From assembly GCA_045106415.1 (NCBI GenBank), contig JBGCEP010000028.1:32001-96000 (forward strand): a stretch of DNA of 64,000 nucleotides, read 5' to 3'. The DNA is from Oligoflexales bacterium. GTDB lineage: Bacteria > Bdellovibrionota_B > Oligoflexia > Oligoflexales > Bog-1112. The notes beneath the pieces are model-generated. The model saw only the letters and a list, made by a program, of their open reading frames with translations, had not been told where the DNA came from and ran no database searches. The translations under genes were made by a program, and so were the position numbers. This document shows, in pieces, positions 28,050 to 37,280 of this stretch; the first letter of the stretch is position 1; every line of letters begins with the position of its first letter.

Positions 28050-29204
28050 ATGAAAATTCTTATTTTAGATGATCAGAAATATTACCTTGAGTCTCTTGTC
28101 GATGGTTTAAATGATCTTAACATTGAAATACAAACAACAACAGATCCAAAAAAAGCTTTGAAATTGGTTAAACAACACTCCCAAGATTATGCTGTTTTAT
28201 TAATAGATATCAATATGCCTATTATGAATGGTTTTGAAGTCATACAAAAAATAAATAATTTATCACTAGAATATTACCCTCCTGCTATTTTTTTAACCGC
28301 TGTTCATAATAATCAACAAAATATTCATTATGGCTACAGTAATGGAGCAGTAGACTACTTATTAAAACCCGTGGATTTATTTATCCTTCAATCAAAAATT
28401 TCTATCTTTACAAAACTTTATAAAAGTAGAAATGAAAACAATTTGTTAAATCAACAGTTATCACAAAAAATTTCTGAGCTTGAAAATGCAAATAAAAATC
28501 TACGATCATTTTCTTCTGTCGTAGCAAATGATTTAAAAACTCATGTCCGACAAATCTATAGTTTTAGCGAAATTATGCTGAATAAGAATTTAAAAAAAGA
28601 ATGTTCACTTGATTATTTATCCCGAATTCAACAATGCACATCTCAAATTAAACGAATTATTCATTCTATCAGCATCTTTAGTCAGTATGGATTAGAAAAT
28701 ATTGATAAAAAAACTTCTCACTCTGAAGAAGTCATACAAGAAGGAAAAAAATTTATTCAAAAAGAAATCAATAAATTTGATGTGGAAATAAATATTTCAA
28801 ATCATAGTTATCTTTATTGTGACAAAGAAAAAATGTCTATTGTTTTTCAGAACATCATACAAAATGCTATAAAATATAAAAATCCGAAAAATTCTCCGGT
28901 AATCAACATAAACATTCAACAAGAACCAAAAAAAACAACCATATCATTTACAGATAATGGATTAGGTATCCCAGAAAATAAAACAAAAGAAATATTTAAA
29001 TTTATGGAAAGATTTCATAATCCAGAAAAAATTCCAGGATCTGGCACGGGTTTAACAATATGTGAGCATATTGTTTCAATGCATGGTGGACATATTTGGG
29101 TAGAGTCAGAGCTTAATCATGGAAGTACTTTTTTCATTACCCTTCCAAAGCATCAAGAAAATATTTTGCTTGATAGCAAAAAGCCATCAAGCAAAATAGA
29201 CTAG
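28050..29204 (+). CDS. REC-HisKA-HATPase hybrid protein with H-box His replaced by Asn
   Basis: REC motifs LDD, LLIDINMP, LLKP; H-box VVANDLK; N/G boxes NAIKY, DNGLGI, GTGL. Confidence 0.9.
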   Translation: MKILILDDQKYYLESLVDGLNDLNIEIQTTTDPKKALKLVKQHSQDYAVLLIDINMPIMNGFEVIQKINNLSLEYYPPAIFLTAVHNNQQNIHYGYSNGAVDYLLKPVDLFILQSKISIFTKLYKSRNENNLLNQQLSQKISELENANKNLRSFSSVVANDLKTHVRQIYSFSEIMLNKNLKKECSLDYLSRIQQCTSQIKRIIHSISIFSQYGLENIDKKTSHSEEVIQEGKKFIQKEINKFDVEINISNHSYLYCDKEKMSIVFQNIIQNAIKYKNPKNSPVININIQQEPKKTTISFTDNGLGIPENKTKEIFKFMERFHNPEKIPGSGTGLTICEHIVSMHGGHIWVESELNHGSTFFITLPKHQENILLDSKKPSSKID

Positions 29205-29344
29205 TTACAATGATCATCGCACTCTTCACAACAATCACAACTTGCATATTCGCAGGTGTCACACCCGCAATGAGTAACAGAAAATCCTGGGTTCGCAGGG
29301 ACCATTAACGCGACCAACGATAGTTTTTTCAAAAGGTTCTTCAT
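29201..29344 (-). CDS. 47-aa exported Cys-rich metallothionein-like peptide (not in ORF track)
   Basis: Hand translation MKNLLKKLSLVALMVPANPGFSVTHCGCDTCEYASCDCCEECDDHCN; GAGGAG RBS 6 nt before ATG; ECF-type promoter upstream. Confidence 0.8.
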   Translation of the reverse strand: MKNLLKKLSLVALMVPANPGFSVTHCGCDTCEYASCDCCEECDDHCN

Positions 29345-29403
29345 CTCAAACTCCTCTAAATAAATTATTTATAAACCTTCTCACTCAAAGGCTTTTCATG
29401 AAC

Positions 29404-29432
29404 TATACTCAAATGATGACGAAAGTGTGACA
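29404..29432 (-). promoter_or_regulatory. ECF sigma-type promoter for the Cys-rich peptide
   Basis: TGTCACA-N17-GTATA, same boxes and spacing as the copy at 29960-29988. Confidence 0.75.
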
Positions 29433-29439
29433 TAGTGAC

Positions 29440-29934
29440 TCATAAAAATTTAAATCTCGCTTTAACAGCTTCATCTAAAAGAACTCCCCACGACTTAAAG
29501 CTTATATAAGCACTTAATGACCACATGAAAACATGCGGAACATCATTCATAACAGATCCGTTCATGTAAATTAAAAAAGCAAAAAAATTTAAAAATATAA
29601 AGAGAATAAAATGATAACTCCATATCACATGGCGGAATAAAAAACGGGAACAGATCCCTTTCAGTATCACGATAGGGGCCAATGTAAAAATCATTCCGCA
29701 CAAAATAGAGCAGCGGATAGATCCATACCTAGAATGAACCATATGCATCGTATCTTGTGCCATACGACTTAGCCCAAGACCAAATTGTCCACAAAAAATC
29801 ATAGATAAAAAGCCACCAAGAAAAATAGATAAACCTAGGCGCCATGTCACAGACCAAACACTAGGGTGCAGGTCTTGATGCACATACTTATAAATTTCTT
29901 CAACTTTAGTTTGATCAATTTTAGGAGCAACCAT
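29440..29934 (-). CDS. Four-TM protein with CxQFG and CxxxCG motifs; candidate anti-sigma factor or metal sensor
   Basis: Hydrophobic helices, IFCGQFG and RCSILCG; divergent from csoR-ECF. Confidence 0.65.
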   Translation of the reverse strand: MVAPKIDQTKVEEIYKYVHQDLHPSVWSVTWRLGLSIFLGGFLSMIFCGQFGLGLSRMAQDTMHMVHSRYGSIRCSILCGMIFTLAPIVILKGICSRFLFRHVIWSYHFILFIFLNFFAFLIYMNGSVMNDVPHVFMWSLSAYISFKSWGVLLDEAVKARFKFL

Positions 29935-29959
29935 AATTTATCCTAGATGATTCTAAATA

Positions 29960-29988
29960 TATACACTCATCGCTCAAAATTTGTGACA
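29960..29988 (-). promoter_or_regulatory. ECF sigma-type promoter for the candidate anti-sigma gene
   Basis: TGTCACA-N17-GTATA, 25 nt upstream of the ATG. Confidence 0.75.
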
Positions 29989-30001
29989 TTTGACAAAAAC
30001 T

Positions 30002-30031
30002 TTGACCCACCATACCCCCCAGGGGTATATT
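30002..30031 (+). promoter_or_regulatory. Sigma70 promoter with CsoR operator in the spacer
   Basis: TTGACC (30002-30007) N18 TATATT (30026-30031); pseudo-palindrome ATACCCC-CCA-GGGGTAT at 30012-30028. Confidence 0.85.
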
Positions 30032-30037
30032 GTTATC

Positions 30038-30319
30038 ATGGATAAAAATGTATTTGCAAAAAAAACATCAGCAAGATTAAACCGAGCACTAGGTCAAGTC
30101 AAAGCAATTGGCAGCATGATTGAGAATGATGATTATTGTATTCATATCATCAGGCAAATTCGCGCTGCTAAATCAGCTTTAAATGCTCTTGAGCTTCTTT
30201 TACTAAATAGGCACATGCAAACTTGTGTTCGCACAGCATTTCAGCATGAAGATCCCGTCACCTCAGAAGAAAAAATTGATGAAATCATTTCTCTACTTAA
30301 AGAAGCACGAAAGTCATGA
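30038..30319 (+). CDS. csoR: CsoR/RcnR family metal-sensing repressor with Cu(I)-type C-H-C ligands
   Basis: RLNRALGQVKAI, DYCIHIIRQIRAAKSAL, RHMQTCV; start moved to ATG 30038. Confidence 0.9.
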   Translation: MDKNVFAKKTSARLNRALGQVKAIGSMIENDDYCIHIIRQIRAAKSALNALELLLLNRHMQTCVRTAFQHEDPVTSEEKIDEIISLLKEARKS

Positions 30320-30825
30320 ATAAAAAAAACTGCACGAACGAAGATCTTTTAAGGTTTTATTCTCAAGGAGATTTTGCGAGTTTTGATATTTTTTTCAAAA
30401 GAAACAGTCATATGATTTTTATGTTTATCTTCAGCAGAAGTGGAAATAAAGCTGACTCAGAAGATATTCTCCAAGAAACATTTTTTAAAATCCATAAGTA
30501 TATTCACACATTTAACCCAGAAAAAAATGCATTGAATTGGGTTTTCACAATCGCTATGAACACTCTTATCACACACCATAAATCTCGAAACAAACACCTA
30601 CCTCACTTTGATGAAATAAGTGCATCTTCTCCACACAGTCAAATTGAAGCTCGCAATGAATTACAAAAAATATTGGCAACATTATCTCATCACGAATCTT
30701 CTTTAATCATAGAAAAATTCCTTCTTGGAAAAGACTCTCATGAGATGAGTGAAACTTTTAAATCACCTGCTCCAAATATTCGAAAAAAATTATCTCGCCT
30801 TCTACAAAAAATCAGGTACTCATAA
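30316..30825 (+). CDS. ECF RNA polymerase sigma factor
   Basis: DSEDILQETFFKI, NWVFTIAMN, region-4-like C-terminus; ATGA overlap with csoR. Confidence 0.9.
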   Translation: MNKKNCTNEDLLRFYSQGDFASFDIFFKRNSHMIFMFIFSRSGNKADSEDILQETFFKIHKYIHTFNPEKNALNWVFTIAMNTLITHHKSRNKHLPHFDEISASSPHSQIEARNELQKILATLSHHESSLIIEKFLLGKDSHEMSETFKSPAPNIRKKLSRLLQKIRYS

Positions 30826-31068: not shown

Positions 31069-31572
31069 ATGTTAAAAAATTTTCTTGCTATTTTATGTAT
31101 CTTTGTAAGTCATCTTGCTTATGGGCTTAACTGCAGCGTCACCATTGAAGCTAATGATATGATGCGTTATAGCAGTGAAACCATGTCTATCAACAAAAAA
31201 TGCAAAAATGTTAAAGTGATTCTTAAAAATGTGGGCAAACTTCCTAAGGTTGCTATGGGGCATAATTGGGTTCTATCAAAGACATCAGATATGCAAGCTG
31301 TTTCAACAGAGGCTTTAAAAGCAGGTGCAGCAAAAGAATACACTCCCGAAGGCTCTAAAGTTATTGCAAAAACAAAACTCCTAGGGGGTGGTGAGCAAGA
31401 TGAAGTGAGCTTTAATGTTGAAAAGTTAAATAAAGATGAACAATACACCTATTTTTGCACATTCCCCGGTCATTCTTCTCTAATGAAGGGTACTTTTAAA
31501 TTCACAGAGACAGGAGAGTTACATGGCAAATCAAACCAAAAAACCAATGGAGATCACTCCCGAAAAGCTTGA
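31069..31572 (+). CDS. azu: Azurin (blue copper protein)
   Basis: Signal peptide; MGHNWVL and YFCTFPGHSSLMKG type-1 Cu ligands; N-terminal disulfide Cys pair. Confidence 0.95.
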   Translation: MLKNFLAILCIFVSHLAYGLNCSVTIEANDMMRYSSETMSINKKCKNVKVILKNVGKLPKVAMGHNWVLSKTSDMQAVSTEALKAGAAKEYTPEGSKVIAKTKLLGGGEQDEVSFNVEKLNKDEQYTYFCTFPGHSSLMKGTFKFTETGELHGKSNQKTNGDHSRKA

Positions 31573-31987
31573 TCGCCTGAAACGCATGTCAGCGGAAAAA
31601 CCAGGGTTGCAAACGCATCCTCACAATGTTGGTGCGTTTGCTATACAGCCTTTAGACGAAAATAAGTCTCGCTCTCAATCTTTGCTAGCTATGCAACAAC
31701 AAACTCAGATGCAGCTTAACCAGATTAATGAGCAGGTACAATCGCTAACAAAACAAGCTCTTAAGCTACAAAAGCGTTTTCAAGTTTCTCAACAGATTTA
31801 CACTGCTAAGATGAGTTTCAAGCCCATCATCGGACAAAGATATTATCTTTACGAAAATCTAAGTGAAAAATTATTTTTATCTATGATTTCTCCAGATGAG
31901 TGGGATCACAACTACCGCTTTATAAGTGCTGTTGAACTTCTTGCTGACCACACATGGCGTGTTTTAGATGACGACCTCATTTCTTAA
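31523..31987 (+). CDS. DUF2452-like protein
   Basis: AKMSFKPIIGQRYYLY, FLSMISPDEW, LLADHTW. Confidence 0.75.
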   Translation: MANQTKKPMEITPEKLDRLKRMSAEKPGLQTHPHNVGAFAIQPLDENKSRSQSLLAMQQQTQMQLNQINEQVQSLTKQALKLQKRFQVSQQIYTAKMSFKPIIGQRYYLYENLSEKLFLSMISPDEWDHNYRFISAVELLADHTWRVLDDDLIS

Positions 31988-31997
31988 GGAGAAGACA

Positions 31998-32168
31998 ATG
32001 CTCAATTGGCTACGACCAGACCCAGTGAAAAAACTTCAAAAGATATATGAAAAAAAATATGCAGAGGCAATTCAAGCGCAAAGAAATGGCAATATAGCAA
32101 AATACAGCCAATTGATCACTGAATCAGAAGAAATATGGAAAAAAATAAAAAGCTACCAACAAAAATAG
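31998..32168 (+). CDS. Small conserved protein (DUF6435-like)
   Basis: AAGGAG RBS; DPVKKLQKIY...AIQAQRNGNI. Confidence 0.7.
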   Translation: MLNWLRPDPVKKLQKIYEKKYAEAIQAQRNGNIAKYSQLITESEEIWKKIKSYQQK

Positions 32169-32193
32169 TTTAAAACAAGACAAAGGAGGAAAT

Positions 32194-33591
32194 ATGCTAA
32201 AAGTCTGTATCACAGGTGCTACTGGATTTATTGGGAAAAACCTCCTTTCGTCTTTAAAACAATATGACGATATAGAAATCATTGCCTTAAGTCGTAAAAT
32301 CTCTCCAATGATGGATGGAGCTTCAAAAGGAAATATCGTATGGAAAAGATGCAATGGTTTTTCTTTACTTGATGTGGAAAAAGCAACAGAAGGAGTTGAC
32401 ATACTCGTTTATCTTATCCACTCAATGGTACCATCTTCATCGCTTTCTCAAGGAAAATTCTCAGACTTTGACCTTTTCTTAGCTGATAACTTTGCTAAGG
32501 CAGCAAAAAAAAATGGTGTCAAAAAAATCATTTATCTCAGCGGATTTATTCCTGAAGATGAGAAGCTTTCAGCTCACTTACAAAGTCGACTTGAGGTTGA
32601 AAAGGCTCTTGCTCAATACGATAATAACTTATCTGTTTTACGCGCAGGTCTTATTGTAGGTCGTAATGGAAGTAGTTTCCGTATTTTAGAGCGACTTATA
32701 CGCCGTCTCCCCGTCTTAATTTGCCCATCATGGACTTTATCAAAAACTCAGCCTATTGATTTAAAAGATGTCCTCGCGAGCTTGGTTTATTGCCTTCGTC
32801 AGCCTGATCAAAATCCAAGCATCTCAGATATTGGTGGCCCCGACATCATGACTTATAAAGAAATGCTTCACTCAACAGCACTGATTCTGAATAAAAAAAG
32901 ACCTATTTTTAATGTCCCTGTGTTTTCTCCAAGCTTATCAAAATTGTGGGTTTCTAAAGTCACATCAGCATCACCTCAGCTCGTTTACCCTCTTGTAGAA
33001 TCTCTTAAACACAACATGATAGCTGATCCTAAAAAACAGCTTATCTTAAAAAATCATACATACACATCCTTCAAAGAGTCTTTAAAAAAAGGCATTAATC
33101 CACATGAAGAAGGCTTTGTTCACCGTATCATTAACTATAATGCAAATATCAATTTACACTGGTTAGAAAACGTAACTTCAATACAGCGTATACCGAACCC
33201 TCTTGGGCATTCAGCAGAGTACGCGGCTATTCAATATTTTTCTTGGCTACCTCAATTTTTAAAAACTTTTATAAATATAGAAAAAATCAACAACCAAGTT
33301 AATTTTTATCTCTCTTCAAAAATACTCCTTCTCAGGTTGGAAAAAAAGATGGAACGAAGCACAAAGACAAGAGTTCTTTATTATATAAAAGGAGGTATCC
33401 TAGCCCGAGACAACACTCTCAATGGACGGCTAGAATTTAGAAACATTCCATGTTCTCAGGATATTTTGATTTCTCTTCTTGACTTCAGACCTTCTTTACC
33501 TTGGTTTATCTACAAATATACCCAAGCACTTATCCACATCTTTACCATGAATTATTTTCATAGACATTGGGTTAAAAAATTTACGTGTTAG
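32194..33591 (+). CDS. NAD(P)-binding atypical SDR/epimerase (YbjT-like)
   Basis: TGATGFIG, YLIHSM, SAHLQSRLEVE, RAGLIVG. Confidence 0.85.
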   Translation: MLKVCITGATGFIGKNLLSSLKQYDDIEIIALSRKISPMMDGASKGNIVWKRCNGFSLLDVEKATEGVDILVYLIHSMVPSSSLSQGKFSDFDLFLADNFAKAAKKNGVKKIIYLSGFIPEDEKLSAHLQSRLEVEKALAQYDNNLSVLRAGLIVGRNGSSFRILERLIRRLPVLICPSWTLSKTQPIDLKDVLASLVYCLRQPDQNPSISDIGGPDIMTYKEMLHSTALILNKKRPIFNVPVFSPSLSKLWVSKVTSASPQLVYPLVESLKHNMIADPKKQLILKNHTYTSFKESLKKGINPHEEGFVHRIINYNANINLHWLENVTSIQRIPNPLGHSAEYAAIQYFSWLPQFLKTFINIEKINNQVNFYLSSKILLLRLEKKMERSTKTRVLYYIKGGILARDNTLNGRLEFRNIPCSQDILISLLDFRPSLPWFIYKYTQALIHIFTMNYFHRHWVKKFTC

Positions 33592-35029
33592 ACTTCGGCA
33601 GCAATTTATACCGTTCCAAAGCTTTTGCACGGGCTGTTTTATGATCAACAATAGGCCTAGGATAGTCACAACCTAGTGTGACTCCGTAGTTCGCTAACTC
33701 TAAAGTAGTCAGTTCCCAAGGCTTATGAATCCATTTTAAAGGTATTTTAGATAGCTCAGGGCACCACTTACGAATATAATCACCTGATTGATCAAATTTT
33801 TCCCCTTGAGTGATGGGATTAAAAATTCTAAAGAAAGGGGATGCGTCTGGTCCGCAACCCGCTGTCCATTGCCACCCTTGAGTATTACTCGCTAAATCCG
33901 CATCAACTAGCGTATTCCAAAACCACCTAGCTCCTTCTTGCCACGGAATATTGAGATGTTTAATAAGAAAAGAAGCAACAATCATACGAACTCTATTATG
34001 CATCCATCCTGTATTCCACAGTTCCCTCATACCAGCATCGACTATTGGATAACCTGTATTCCCTGAGCACCATAAATCAAACCAATTTGCATTTTTTTTC
34101 CATGGGAAATCTTTAAATTGCTTTTTCAGTGGCTCATCTGGCAATAAAGGAAAAAAATACAAGAGGTGATATGCAAACTCTCTCCAGACAATTTCTTTAC
34201 AAAATTGAATAATATTTTCATTTTTTATTCTAGACAAAGGACCATATTCTTTTTCTACAGCATCTAAAATAGACCGCGGATGAATTTCTCCAAAATGTAA
34301 ATAAGGGCTTAAGCTCGATGTCCCGGAGACCGCAGGAAAATCTCTTTTATCATGGTAACTTTCAATTCCAGATTGGATAAAATTTTTCAAAGCTTTTTTT
34401 GCATTTTTTTCACCAGGTTTCCAAATAAAAAATCCTGTATCCCATGGTATCGTAGGCAATAATTTCAAGCTTTCTACTCTAAGGCTTTGCGCAACCCCCT
34501 CTGGAGAGGGCGAAAGACCCCTCTTCTTATTTTTTGGAAACGACCTATATTTTTTTAGAAAGTTCCTCCAAAAAGGTGTGTAAACAAGGTATGGGCTTCC
34601 ATCCGATTTGAGCAGATCAGCAGGTTCTTTTAAAAGAGAACCTGCACAAGCTGTCCACGGTATATCGCGTTTTTCAAATTCTTTGATAGCTTCTTTCACT
34701 TGATTTTTTGAACTCGGATCATAATTCCTATTCCAGAACACAGCTTGAATATCAATCTTCTCAAAAATATCTGAAAAAACATGCTGCCCTTGACCTTCCA
34801 TAATAAATAAATTAGATCCTTGTTTTTGAAGAGAGTCTTGGTACTCAACAAGACTATGGTGAAGCCACCAGCAACTCGCCTCACCTGGAGGCCATTCTTT
34901 TTTCACGTCATGTATAAAGACTGGCAAAACATATTCATATTCACTTGCTTCTATAAGAGCTTGATTCTCGTCAATCCGAAAATCATTCCGGACCCAAACA
35001 AGAGCCGTTCCTTTTTTTTTCATTGCCAT
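33581..35029 (-). CDS. phrB: Deoxyribodipyrimidine photolyase (CPD photolyase family)
   Basis: WVRNDFRIDEN, TSSLSPYLHFG, TGYPIVDAGMREL, MHNRVRM, FRIFNP. Confidence 0.95.
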   Translation of the reverse strand: MAMKKKGTALVWVRNDFRIDENQALIEASEYEYVLPVFIHDVKKEWPPGEASCWWLHHSLVEYQDSLQKQGSNLFIMEGQGQHVFSDIFEKIDIQAVFWNRNYDPSSKNQVKEAIKEFEKRDIPWTACAGSLLKEPADLLKSDGSPYLVYTPFWRNFLKKYRSFPKNKKRGLSPSPEGVAQSLRVESLKLLPTIPWDTGFFIWKPGEKNAKKALKNFIQSGIESYHDKRDFPAVSGTSSLSPYLHFGEIHPRSILDAVEKEYGPLSRIKNENIIQFCKEIVWREFAYHLLYFFPLLPDEPLKKQFKDFPWKKNANWFDLWCSGNTGYPIVDAGMRELWNTGWMHNRVRMIVASFLIKHLNIPWQEGARWFWNTLVDADLASNTQGWQWTAGCGPDASPFFRIFNPITQGEKFDQSGDYIRKWCPELSKIPLKWIHKPWELTTLELANYGVTLGCDYPRPIVDHKTARAKALERYKLLPKSNT

Positions 35030-35039
35030 TCAATATCCC

Positions 35040-35984
35040 TTAAACATGATTTCTTAAACTTAAATCAGTTGGATGCGGATTTAGATAATATTGGTTTTTG
35101 ATATATGCAACGTTATGTAATTTGGCATAATGCTGTAATAGAGTCATCGGCACAATTAAAGGATGAACACCTTGATGATAGTACTCAATAACCTCTAAAA
35201 CAGATTGTTTTTCTTCTTTAGATAAAAACTTTTTAAAAAAACCGAGAATATGAAGTAGAGCATCGGTATTTTTTCGCGTTGTGGTTTTAATAGACAAAGC
35301 CGTCATATAGAGCTCAGAATATTCTTCAATAAAATCTTTTGATTTATAATCAGCTATTTTCGCAACAAGGTGTCCAAGCTCTGTGTATAATCCCCGGCCT
35401 CTTGCAAGTAGTAGGTATTTATTGTTTTGGTGGAAATCAACCCAGTCACCTCTTTTAAATCTTTGACCACAAAGCTCTTGTAGGCGGTGATACCCAAAAA
35501 CCCTCTCAATAAAATTTTCTCTAATTTTATAATCATTTAATCTCCCCTCTTCTTCGATGGGAATTAAAGGCCACTGCTTTTGAAATTCTTTAGAAAAAAG
35601 ACCCATACCATCAGGCAATGGAATACCTGTTTTCTCTTGATAAACCTTCACACGAAATGCTCCACACGAGGGAGAACCTTTTTTAAATAAATATCCAGAT
35701 AAACCATGAAGTTTCTGAACTCTTTTTTTGCTATAAGTATTCATAGCACTTGTCCAATCTTCACCGGAACGGGGTTCTATCATGGAAGGTTGATGAATAT
35801 CCCCAACCAAACGCACACTTTTACGAGGCACTCCCATTCCAACCTCTAACTCAGGACAGACAGGGACATATTTAAAGTATTTACCTAAAATTTCGTTGAT
35901 ATACCAATGTCTCTTGTGTTGAGCATCAAATCTGACTTTTTCACCCAATAAACAACTCGACACACCAATCATAATATCATTCAT
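35040..35984 (-). CDS. DUF523 plus DUF1722 fusion (YbgA-like; thiouracil desulfidase-type Fe-S domain)
   Basis: GVSSCLLGEKVRFD, VCPE, SPSCG, EEEGRLND, YLNPHP. Confidence 0.9.
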   Translation of the reverse strand: MNDIMIGVSSCLLGEKVRFDAQHKRHWYINEILGKYFKYVPVCPELEVGMGVPRKSVRLVGDIHQPSMIEPRSGEDWTSAMNTYSKKRVQKLHGLSGYLFKKGSPSCGAFRVKVYQEKTGIPLPDGMGLFSKEFQKQWPLIPIEEEGRLNDYKIRENFIERVFGYHRLQELCGQRFKRGDWVDFHQNNKYLLLARGRGLYTELGHLVAKIADYKSKDFIEEYSELYMTALSIKTTTRKNTDALLHILGFFKKFLSKEEKQSVLEVIEYYHQGVHPLIVPMTLLQHYAKLHNVAYIKNQYYLNPHPTDLSLRNHV

Positions 35985-36016
35985 ATGCTTCCATTTCGTG
36001 TTGATATACTATTATC

Positions 36017-36784
36017 TTACCAAGGTAACTTTTCACCATCCCAGGAAAAAAAAGAACCTGATTCTTTTATTGTACATTTTTGTATAACCTGCAGCATGTT
36101 AATAGCAGTCTCACTTACTGTATGCACAATAAGGCTCGTTTTTTTTATATAAGGCTGCGAGAGATCTGTTTTGGTTGTACCTGGATGTAAACTCAAAACA
36201 ATGCATAATTTCTTTCTATTCAAGTATTCAATAGCAATATTTTTCAAAAACATATTCAAAGCTGCTTTAGACGCCCGATAGCCATACCAACCACCCAAAG
36301 AGTTATCTTCAATACTACCTACTTTTGCTGATAACGTTGCAAAAATTGATATTTTTTCTTTACTAAAAAAATCAATTGCATGCTTTGCAATAAGAGGAGT
36401 CGCAATGGCATTCACTCTAAAATATTCCATCAAATAATCTGGTTTAATTTGATTTAAACTTTTTTCTGGATGCATACTATCTTGATCAAGAATCCCAATA
36501 GCATTAATCAAACAGTCAATATAGACACATCGAGATGATACTCTCTCAAAAAAAGCGCGAATATCATTTTCAACAGTCATGTCATACTGAAAAATATAAA
36601 GACGGTCTTCATACTTTTCTTTCAGCAACAAAAGCTTACTTGCTTTTGTTGTCTTTCGAAAAGATGCAAAAACAATCATTTCATGGTGCACACCTAGTAA
36701 TTGCTCAGTCAGTGCACACCCGATACCATGCCCAGCACCCAAAACAACACCAACACGAGCCTCGCTCCAATCAAACTGACTCAT
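36017..36784 (-). CDS. Short-chain dehydrogenase (C-factor/CsgA-like)
   Basis: GAGHGIG, SAKVGSIEDN, YRASK, HPGTTKT; start uncertain (ORF open to 36868). Confidence 0.88.
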   Translation of the reverse strand: MSQFDWSEARVGVVLGAGHGIGCALTEQLLGVHHEMIVFASFRKTTKASKLLLLKEKYEDRLYIFQYDMTVENDIRAFFERVSSRCVYIDCLINAIGILDQDSMHPEKSLNQIKPDYLMEYFRVNAIATPLIAKHAIDFFSKEKISIFATLSAKVGSIEDNSLGGWYGYRASKAALNMFLKNIAIEYLNRKKLCIVLSLHPGTTKTDLSQPYIKKTSLIVHTVSETAINMLQVIQKCTIKESGSFFSWDGEKLPW

Positions 36785-36887
36785 TTGAGGCCTTCTGCTG
36801 AATAAGTATCTCCTCATAGAGGTAAACCTCAATAAGAAACTCTCGATAGAAACAAAGCACCGATACAAAACATAAAAAAAACACAGA

Positions 36888-37280
36888 CTACCTCATATGA
36901 CATTGATCATCACATTTTTTCTTAGGGAGATAAGGCCTCAAATTTGCAAAAACAAGATAACCCACATTCATCAATGGTCGTATCACTCTGTTCTTAGCAC
37001 ACCATATCCCATATGGAAAAATTTCTAGCGTTTCCCAAATTTGTACAAAAGCATCCACCCCGGAACACAACTCATTTTTTGCGCTCTTTATATGGAAAAA
37101 TTTATTCACCAACTTAGGATCAAGCCCTTCTTGTGTAGGGTCAAAACCAACAGCTGAAATATCCATCAATTTTAAGCGATCATATCGGTCTAGATTTTTA
37201 TAAACCTGCATTTCATGCTCACACAAAGGGCATGAACCATCATAATAGGCTGTCATTAAAGGTTTTTTCTTACTCATCAC
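36888..37280 (-). CDS. DCC1-like thiol-disulfide oxidoreductase (DUF393)
   Basis: YYDGSCPLC motif, GVDAFVQIW. Confidence 0.88.
   Translation of the reverse strand: MMSKKKPLMTAYYDGSCPLCEHEMQVYKNLDRYDRLKLMDISAVGFDPTQEGLDPKLVNKFFHIKSAKNELCSGVDAFVQIWETLEIFPYGIWCAKNRVIRPLMNVGYLVFANLRPYLPKKKCDDQCHMR

Follow-up and report, generated by a model that had tools for sequence, protein, structure and literature searches.

Organization of the locus

The window (the whole stretch of DNA that was analyzed, 64,000 nucleotides) contains on its minus strand a small gene, here called P0001 (29201..29344), which encodes a peptide of 47 aa composed of a leader and a tail rich in cysteine and acidic residues. The translation is exactly the one given in a preliminary description of this DNA, and the other elements named there have been recovered as well: the ribosome-binding site GAGGAG (29351..29356, minus strand), read from the sequence 6 nt upstream of the ATG, a promoter motif of its own (29404..29432), and the placement in a CsoR/ECF locus, the CsoR-family and ECF genes being identified by family models. 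The coding region is followed by an intrinsic-terminator-like hairpin of 16 pairs with a T-rich tail (29162..29198, minus strand; z = -7.5, none of 200 shuffles folding equally well), lying within the final codons of a hybrid kinase gene that converges on P0001. P0001 is a real gene, and a public collection holds the exact protein as a called protein, in a cluster of one. The X2 DNA contigs contain both flanks of P0001 at near identity, but just the last 33 bases of the ORF. The stop codons of P0001 and of the kinase gene, which is very AT-rich (27.5% G+C), overlap by four bases in one CTAG (29201-29204).

The proposed mature peptide (residues 23-47, 25 aa; 29204..29278, minus strand) contains 8 Cys (32%), 2 His and 7 Asp/Glu, a recount agreeing with the preliminary description; it has no Lys or Arg and a single aromatic residue. 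CxC, CxxC and CC motifs combined with few aromatic residues characterize metallothioneins, and all of these are found in the mature part. Metallothioneins are described in general as 'cysteine-rich small proteins' (PMC7558416). As a superfamily they are also induced by metal, bind several metal ions in thiolate clusters and adopt their fold just when the metal is bound. Among the 63,524 six-frame open stretches of the genome (2.95 Mb, 39.8% G+C, 93.8% complete), four, including P0001, have at least seven Cys and at least five Asp/Glu in 25 residues. P0001 is also the sole ORF of the genome passing a screen for a leader plus cysteines, which was designed with the P0001 sequence already known. 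The AlphaFold2 model of P0001, built from three sequences, contains no structural elements (mean pLDDT 55, pTM 0.17; low alignment depth gives a like result).

On the plus strand, a gene for a CsoR-family repressor of 93 aa (30038..30319; PF02583 above the cut-off) is followed by a gene for an ECF sigma factor of 169 aa (30316..30825), the start of which overlaps the csoR stop. The best NCBIfam model for the repressor is RicR, with a score below the cut-off of that model. The sigma-70-type promoter of the two genes (TTGACC-18-TATATT; 30002..30031, plus strand) is overlapped by the palindrome ATACCC-N5-GGGTAT (30012..30028), situated between the -35 and -10 boxes, which, from the shape of the box, we take to be the CsoR operator; the full TACCCC/GGGGTA core is found nowhere else in the genome. 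A TTG codon at 29990 was considered as an alternative csoR start and rejected, since the resulting frame runs through the operator, while the ATG at 30038 is located after the -10 box. The Cu(I)-sensing site of CsoR is described as formed by two Cys and one His ligands (PMC7558416), and the protein encoded here has Cys34, His59 and Cys63, together with the palindrome in its own promoter, as a Cu(I)-type CsoR should. Homologues of this repressor adjoin the same ECF family in two other sets of loci.

The gene between P0001 and csoR (29440..29934, minus strand) encodes a membrane protein of 164 aa, which belongs to no Pfam family and has three invariant cysteines, Cys48, Cys75 and Cys79. Its homologues are present in 49 of the 131 genomes of the class, and in several of them (G017, G053, G042, G043, G046) the gene lies directly 3' of the ECF gene. 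The modelled binding of the ECF sigma factor to this protein scores 0.67, versus 0.02 for the best of three controls, against a mark that is reached by 116 of 157 solved pairs and two of 215 mismatched pairs, though such a pass may partly reflect the likeness of sigma/anti-sigma pairs to solved complexes. At least 97% of the contacts are common to the runs, the partner pLDDT is at least 75, and the modelled contact is that of the N-terminal helix of the membrane protein with region 2 of the sigma factor. On this model, the 164-aa membrane protein is a probable anti-sigma factor. It is not of the NrsF type: none of 17 family members matches NrsF (PF06532), and the comparison of the family profile with a true NrsF profile gives a probability of 0.1%. 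In one relative (loci L023 and L040, G012:C88) the orthologous ECF gene has an internal stop and the anti-sigma gene is a fragment; the adjacent genes, Cus-type and ATPase, look intact.

Promoter motif and its regulon

P0001 is preceded by an ECF-type promoter, TGTCACA-N17-GTATA (29404..29432, minus strand), and a second site exactly matching this motif is found upstream of the anti-sigma gene (29960..29988, minus strand). The genome contains three exact copies of the motif, these two and one at C8:37812, which is antisense within a gene and was taken as a chance occurrence. When a matrix built from the sites of relatives, with those of this genome left out, is used to scan the genome, the P0001 site ranks first (16.5 bits) and the anti-sigma site sixth of eight sites above 13 bits.

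The motif is conserved. In 78 overlapping loci holding the anti-sigma family, TGTCACA and GTAT are separated by a spacer of 17 nt in 24 distinct sites (two of them from this genome), compared to zero or one site for each other spacer length between 13 and 22. The exact motif has 52 matches in the 131 genomes of the class versus 12 for a reversed control, both counts being descriptive, as kin genomes are not independent. The variant with a 16-nt spacer has 38 matches, and its control is of similar size, so that in this class the variant is at chance level. The main text of the ECF re-classification paper gives no group for the TGTCACA-N17-GTAT motif.

The genes located downstream of the motif in relatives are largely concerned with copper. 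Of 63 listed ORFs behind such sites, 15 hand-picked ones were compared to Pfam, yielding three outer-membrane efflux proteins, two CusB proteins, three multicopper oxidases, one P-type ATPase (YHS and HMBD domains), one DUF305 protein, one cytochrome c, and four proteins matching no family. Moreover, all five RND pumps tested from the motif loci have their best match in CusA/CzcA, a P-type ATPase fragment behind the motif in a relative best matches a copper-translocating model, and a His-rich DUF3347 gene follows a motif site, too. The TGTCACA-N17-GTAT regulon of the relatives is a copper-resistance regulon. The regulon predicted in the genome under study comprises the anti-sigma gene and P0001, and transcription of the peptide gene is most probably directed by the ECF sigma factor, CsoR being placed one level above it in the cascade. 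The ECF gene and its anti-sigma partner of an unassigned family (29440-30825 in the window, loci L041-L070) may represent an undescribed copper-sensing ECF group.

In the 93.8%-complete assembly no P-type ATPase has been identified, with a search control that was positive in each of 14 genomes. A multicopper oxidase is likewise not found in this assembly or in those of G002 and G012; both absences are provisional, as the assembly is incomplete. The single CusA/CzcA-family pump operon lacks the ECF motif. An azurin gene (31069-31572) is located 1.7 kb from the peptide locus, with no ECF motif upstream; its frame extends some 20 residues beyond the domain, with a 50-base overlap into the next gene. 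The region 31523-37280 contains a cluster of genes for DUF2452, DUF6435, NAD-dependent epimerase, photolyase, DUF1722/2-thiouracil desulfurase, short-chain dehydrogenase and DCC1-like proteins, resembling a photo-oxidative stress set.

Predicted export and relatives of the peptide

Residues 1-22 of P0001 (29279..29344, minus strand) form a probable Sec signal peptide, with Pro, Gly and Ser in positions -4, -3 and -1 of the proposed cleavage site. The two peptides of the same build found in a relative, P0006 and P0007 (see below), have similar leaders: in all three a positively charged n-region is followed by a hydrophobic stretch, Pro in position -4 and small residues in positions -3 and -1, and these sequence features make cleavage plausible after residue 22 in P0001, 21 in P0006 and 20 in P0007, the latter having a textbook V-L-A site. 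The best hydrophobic mean over eight residues of the P0001 leader, 2.84, falls in the top 19% of 976 long ORFs, while the best mean over 11 residues, 1.76, is lower than in azurin (2.52) and the bufferin precursor (2.55) and is the weakest among the three peptides. In the 22-aa signal-like leader proposed in the preliminary description, the hydrophobic core is short and two prolines follow it; the signal peptides of P0006 and P0007 are clearer. The 47-aa peptide contains no twin arginine and no lipobox. Judged by the lipobox consensus, with OmcA-like Cys-rich lipoproteins as the comparison class, the residues preceding the first cysteine (V-T-H in P0001, A-P-D and Q-P-D in the other two) form no lipobox in any of the three. 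From these features, export of P0001 is predicted with fairly high confidence.

A six-frame search of the 131 genomes gave weak matches to P0001 in 34 of them at E up to 0.5. Among the fetched loci, intact ORFs of the same build are limited to the two best matches, P0006 and P0007 (E = 0.0013 and 0.003 per genome), both from G012. P0006 (45 aa, 7 Cys, 3 His) opens an operon that also encodes a different ECF sigma factor and a membrane protein, and P0006 starts 72 nt after a TGTCACA site with the 16-nt spacer, a variant that is at chance level in the class. P0007 (40 aa, 7 Cys) follows a 98-aa CutF/CruR-like leader ORF (region L101:622-1095, G012:C307), predicted to control it, in which the codons pair with the P0007 ribosome-binding site (z = -2.0; 8 of 200 shuffles reach this value).

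P0001 and P0007 share the cysteine spacing C[DE]xC-x4-CDCCE[DE]C[DE], and the similarity score of their mature parts is reached by seven of 5000 shuffles. The mature parts of P0001 and P0006 are no more similar than expected from composition (706/5000), and the remaining two comparisons are not significant either (926/5000 and 1960/5000). The leaders of P0001 and P0006, and those of P0006 and P0007, show similarity not reached in any of 5000 shuffles each, a value inflated by the common positional structure of signal peptides. Common ancestry is likely for at least a part of this set, judging from the sequences, and convergence is also possible. The locus of the closest ECF orthologue (G002) has no P0001-like peptide behind the anti-sigma gene. 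Similarly, of 78 stretches retrieved from genome contigs with the anti-sigma pattern, 15 are true homologues, and a screen of these 15 records revealed no signal-plus-Cys peptide. Hence the conservation of cysteines at homologous loci, proposed earlier as a check, applies in part: the spacing is partly conserved among the three peptides, and no such peptide is seen at the other ECF loci examined.

Wider searches added no members. A profile of the three sequences finds none in the 131 genomes of the class and none in 401 genomes sampled from another phylum. In a library of 1.84 billion proteins P0001 retrieves itself and one 899-aa low-complexity repeat, and a search of 5.8 billion proteins, with the single sequence and with the three-row profile, retrieves P0001 itself; P0006 and P0007 are also absent from the latter results, so tiny genes appear to be under-called there. 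The Atlas has no usable match to P0001, and for P0007 it gives unnamed clusters at 0.79-0.80, to be taken as leads. No chain among the solved structures matches P0001 at E up to 10, and no family in Pfam or NCBIfam at E up to 1. DNA pattern matches to the cysteine spacing (118 metagenome and at least 121 viral stretches) were discarded, being mostly antisense frames or cysteine repeats, with no clear family member.

Some other cysteine-rich peptides were observed in the course of these searches. Two metagenome contigs (L257:883-1119; L276:2483-2605, minus strand) encode a lipoprotein-like peptide of 40-46 aa with at least 13 Cys and several Asp, located between genes that were named by eye as an M23-type peptidase and an ABC transporter pair. 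A low-GC metagenome contig (L310:2408-2590, plus strand) encodes a peptide of 60 aa that contains 18 Cys and a clear signal peptide and is preceded by a strong ribosome-binding site.

Possible function and comparison with known systems

Since the promoter type of P0001 drives copper-defence genes in relatives, the most likely role of the peptide is to sequester copper outside the cytoplasm, in the manner of a metallothionein. The preliminary description suggested a periplasmic or secreted Cu(I) chelator, and this prediction has gained from the copper-resistance genes headed by the motif in relatives and from the two peptides of the same build, with their clearer signals and regulatory contexts. 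An exported metallothionein-like Cu(I) buffer is the reading towards which we lean, and the regulon context points to copper as the inducing metal.

We infer the following order of events. Cytoplasmic Cu(I) would free CsoR from its operator, allowing transcription of csoR and the ECF gene. The membrane anti-sigma factor would hold the sigma factor and release it once metal or a redox change reaches the conserved cysteines of the anti-sigma, thus providing a second gate at the envelope. The free sigma factor would then fire two promoters, that of the anti-sigma gene (feedback) and that of the peptide gene. Signal peptidase would cut after Ser22, releasing an unfolded acidic peptide of 25 residues into the periplasm, where its eight thiolates and two histidines could coordinate several Cu(I) ions, with Ag(I), Cd(II) or Zn(II) as possible alternatives.

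Several other explanations have to be weighed. An exported disulfide-bonded mini-protein, or a sacrificial thiol scavenger of oxidants similar to the Met-rich MrpX from the SigF/NrsF regulon of Azospira, is in our opinion unlikely. A regulon of an ECF/anti-sigma pair with a sacrificial periplasmic peptide is described there (PMC4436054), and the eight cysteines allow for four disulfides. Moreover, the genome encodes two VKOR-family proteins (no DsbB has been found in the assembly), so the exported cysteines may be oxidised to disulfides. However, both relatives have seven cysteines with partly different spacing, and with this odd number free thiolates fit better than a fixed disulfide knot; besides, the motif-headed genes of relatives serve copper export and oxidation, and the upstream regulator is a Cu-type CsoR.

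Little different in probability, and also unlikely, is a cytoplasmic metallothionein of the MymT kind, with an N-terminus that is not a working signal peptide. The short hydrophobic core with two prolines would be consistent with it, as would the fact that no P-type ATPase for clearing cytoplasmic copper has been found, but the positive n-region, Pro -4 and the small residues at -3 and -1, common to all three peptides, and the V-L-A site of P0007 argue for export. So would the predicted control by an ECF sigma factor, as ECF factors mostly serve envelope functions. The parallel with characterised MymT, described as cytoplasmic and controlled by a CsoR paralogue (PMC3944814), favours the cytoplasmic location.

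A further possibility, that P0001 is an orphan RiPP precursor which the MNIO enzyme of the genome converts in trans into a bufferin-like copper chelator, would also be in line with the regulatory context, as bufferins are described as having Sec signals, several cysteines and copper-linked ECF control (PMC11626156), and many precursors as located away from MNIO genes (PMC12452194). The shared theme and the existence of orphan precursors make such modification of P0001 possible but unlikely. The genome has one MNIO gene and one DUF2063 gene, both on contig C10 directly after a typical DUF2282 bufferin precursor (G000:C10:13890-15439, L449); this precursor matches DUF2282 at E 9e-17, serving as a control for the family test, in which P0001 has no match in Pfam or NCBIfam at E up to 1. 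The cluster is immediately preceded by a transposase remnant, it has no sigma factor or NrsF gene beside it, and no TGTCACA-type promoter was found in the 11-kb region. As the sole MNIO has a bufferin precursor of its own, and the acidic CxC/CC tail of P0001 is unlike the Gly/Lys-rich bufferin precursors of these genomes, we consider the modified peptide improbable; the RiPP alternative of the preliminary description, which noted that no modifying enzyme is adjacent, is weak when the whole genome is considered as well. In G017, a 42-aa ORF with WRNC repeats (L452:2406-2534, minus strand) directly precedes an MNIO gene and a radical-SAM-like gene and is a possible RiPP precursor.

Comparably improbable is an exported peptide that binds Zn, Cd or Ag, or one that delivers copper to azurin or the CusA/CzcA pump instead of storing it: acidic residues and histidines would also suit divalent ions, and the genome has one pump of this family and the nearby azurin, yet neither the pump operon nor the azurin gene carries the ECF motif, and the regulon in relatives is centred on copper. 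Finally, a chance or decayed ORF with no function is very improbable, since P0001, while lacking a close homologue, is framed by a ribosome-binding site, the top-scoring promoter of the regulon and a terminator, has a composition unique in the genome, and is matched by peptides of the same build in a relative.

Returning to the exported Cu(I) buffer, we tentatively offer a more far-reaching version, which could well prove wrong in some of its parts. P0001 would be a natively exported unmodified metallothionein with reduced periplasmic thiolates, the sole effector of an undescribed copper cascade leading from CsoR to the ECF/anti-sigma pair, standing in for the seemingly missing copper ATPase and multicopper oxidase; together with P0006 and P0007 it would form one class of micro-peptides combining a signal with thiolates, which three different copper switches (this ECF, a second ECF, and a CutF-like leader) would have acquired independently. 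The bacterial metallothioneins characterised so far are counted among the proteins that handle copper in the cytosol (PMC7558416), and a full-text literature search, with most subscription journals outside its coverage, yielded no description of a natively exported one. The exported Cys-based copper binders known so far depend either on a modifying enzyme, as the bufferins do, or on a fold exported by the Tat route, as in Csp1, and an unmodified periplasmic thiolate peptide of 25 residues would, if confirmed, be a third route, raising the question how periplasmic thiols escape disulfide formation. In a predatory lineage that has received little study, the locus itself would define an ECF/anti-sigma system responding to copper, together with its predicted promoter.

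By the family tests given here, P0001 is outside the SmtA/BmtA, MymT, bufferin and Csp1 families, though it resembles each of them in some respect. With SmtA/BmtA it shares the design of a small metal-binding protein containing Cys and His (PMC7558416, PMC7387436); SmtA is described as having a zinc-finger fold and handling Zn and Cd (PMC7558416, PMC7387436), whereas P0001 matches none of the Pfam families at E up to 1 and its mature part is half the size. With Csp1 it shares thiolate-based copper binding and export, both predicted for P0001, but Csp1 is described as a rigid four-helix bundle exported by a Tat signal (PMC7558416), unlike the 25-residue mature peptide with no twin arginine and no helices modelled. 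The bufferins Buf1 (DUF2282) and Buf2 (6/12Cys) of the Caulobacter SigF/NrsF regulon resemble P0001 in the cysteine core, and also in the Sec signal, the link to copper stress and the control by an ECF factor with a membrane anti-sigma, the last three being predicted for P0001 (PMC11626156, PMC12452194). Unlike them, P0001 has no MNIO or DUF2063 gene in cis and no DUF2282 or 6/12Cys signature, and its locus differs from SigF/NrsF in the sigma promoter and in the unrelated anti-sigma.

The regulatory parts show a similar pattern. The leader ORF preceding P0007 resembles CutF/CruR (DUF2946) leaders in the hydrophobic start, the CxxC, the RPP near the C-terminus and the stem over the next ribosome-binding site (PMC9426467; bioRxiv 10.1101/2025.02.05.636593), differing from them in that it has no DUF2946 match, and no such leader precedes P0001. 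The -35 element TGTCACA is shared with ECF41 (PMC3426412), for which the promoter is described as N16-CGTC and the sigma factor as having a fused C-terminal extension (PMC3426412), while here the promoter is N17-GTAT, and the 169-aa sigma factor has no extension and a separate anti-sigma. A combination similar to the predicted one, in which an ECF factor is held by a membrane anti-sigma with conserved cysteines and the small regulon includes a small periplasmic effector, is described for SigF/NrsF of Caulobacter and Azospira, the latter with MrpX (PMC3511200, PMC4436054); here the anti-sigma is not NrsF by profile, the effector is Cys-rich and not Met-rich, and CsoR is placed upstream. MymT from the RicR regulon of Mycobacterium tuberculosis is, like P0001, a long-unannotated Cys-rich protein of about 5 kDa downstream of a CsoR-family copper sensor (PMC3944814, PMC7558416). 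There is no sequence match between the two and no NCBIfam family for P0001 at E up to 1, though the libraries may lack a MymT model. MymT is described as cytoplasmic and directly repressed by RicR (PMC3944814, PMC7558416), whereas P0001 starts with a signal-like leader, is apparently ECF-driven and strongly acidic, and would work like MymT, but outside the cytoplasm.
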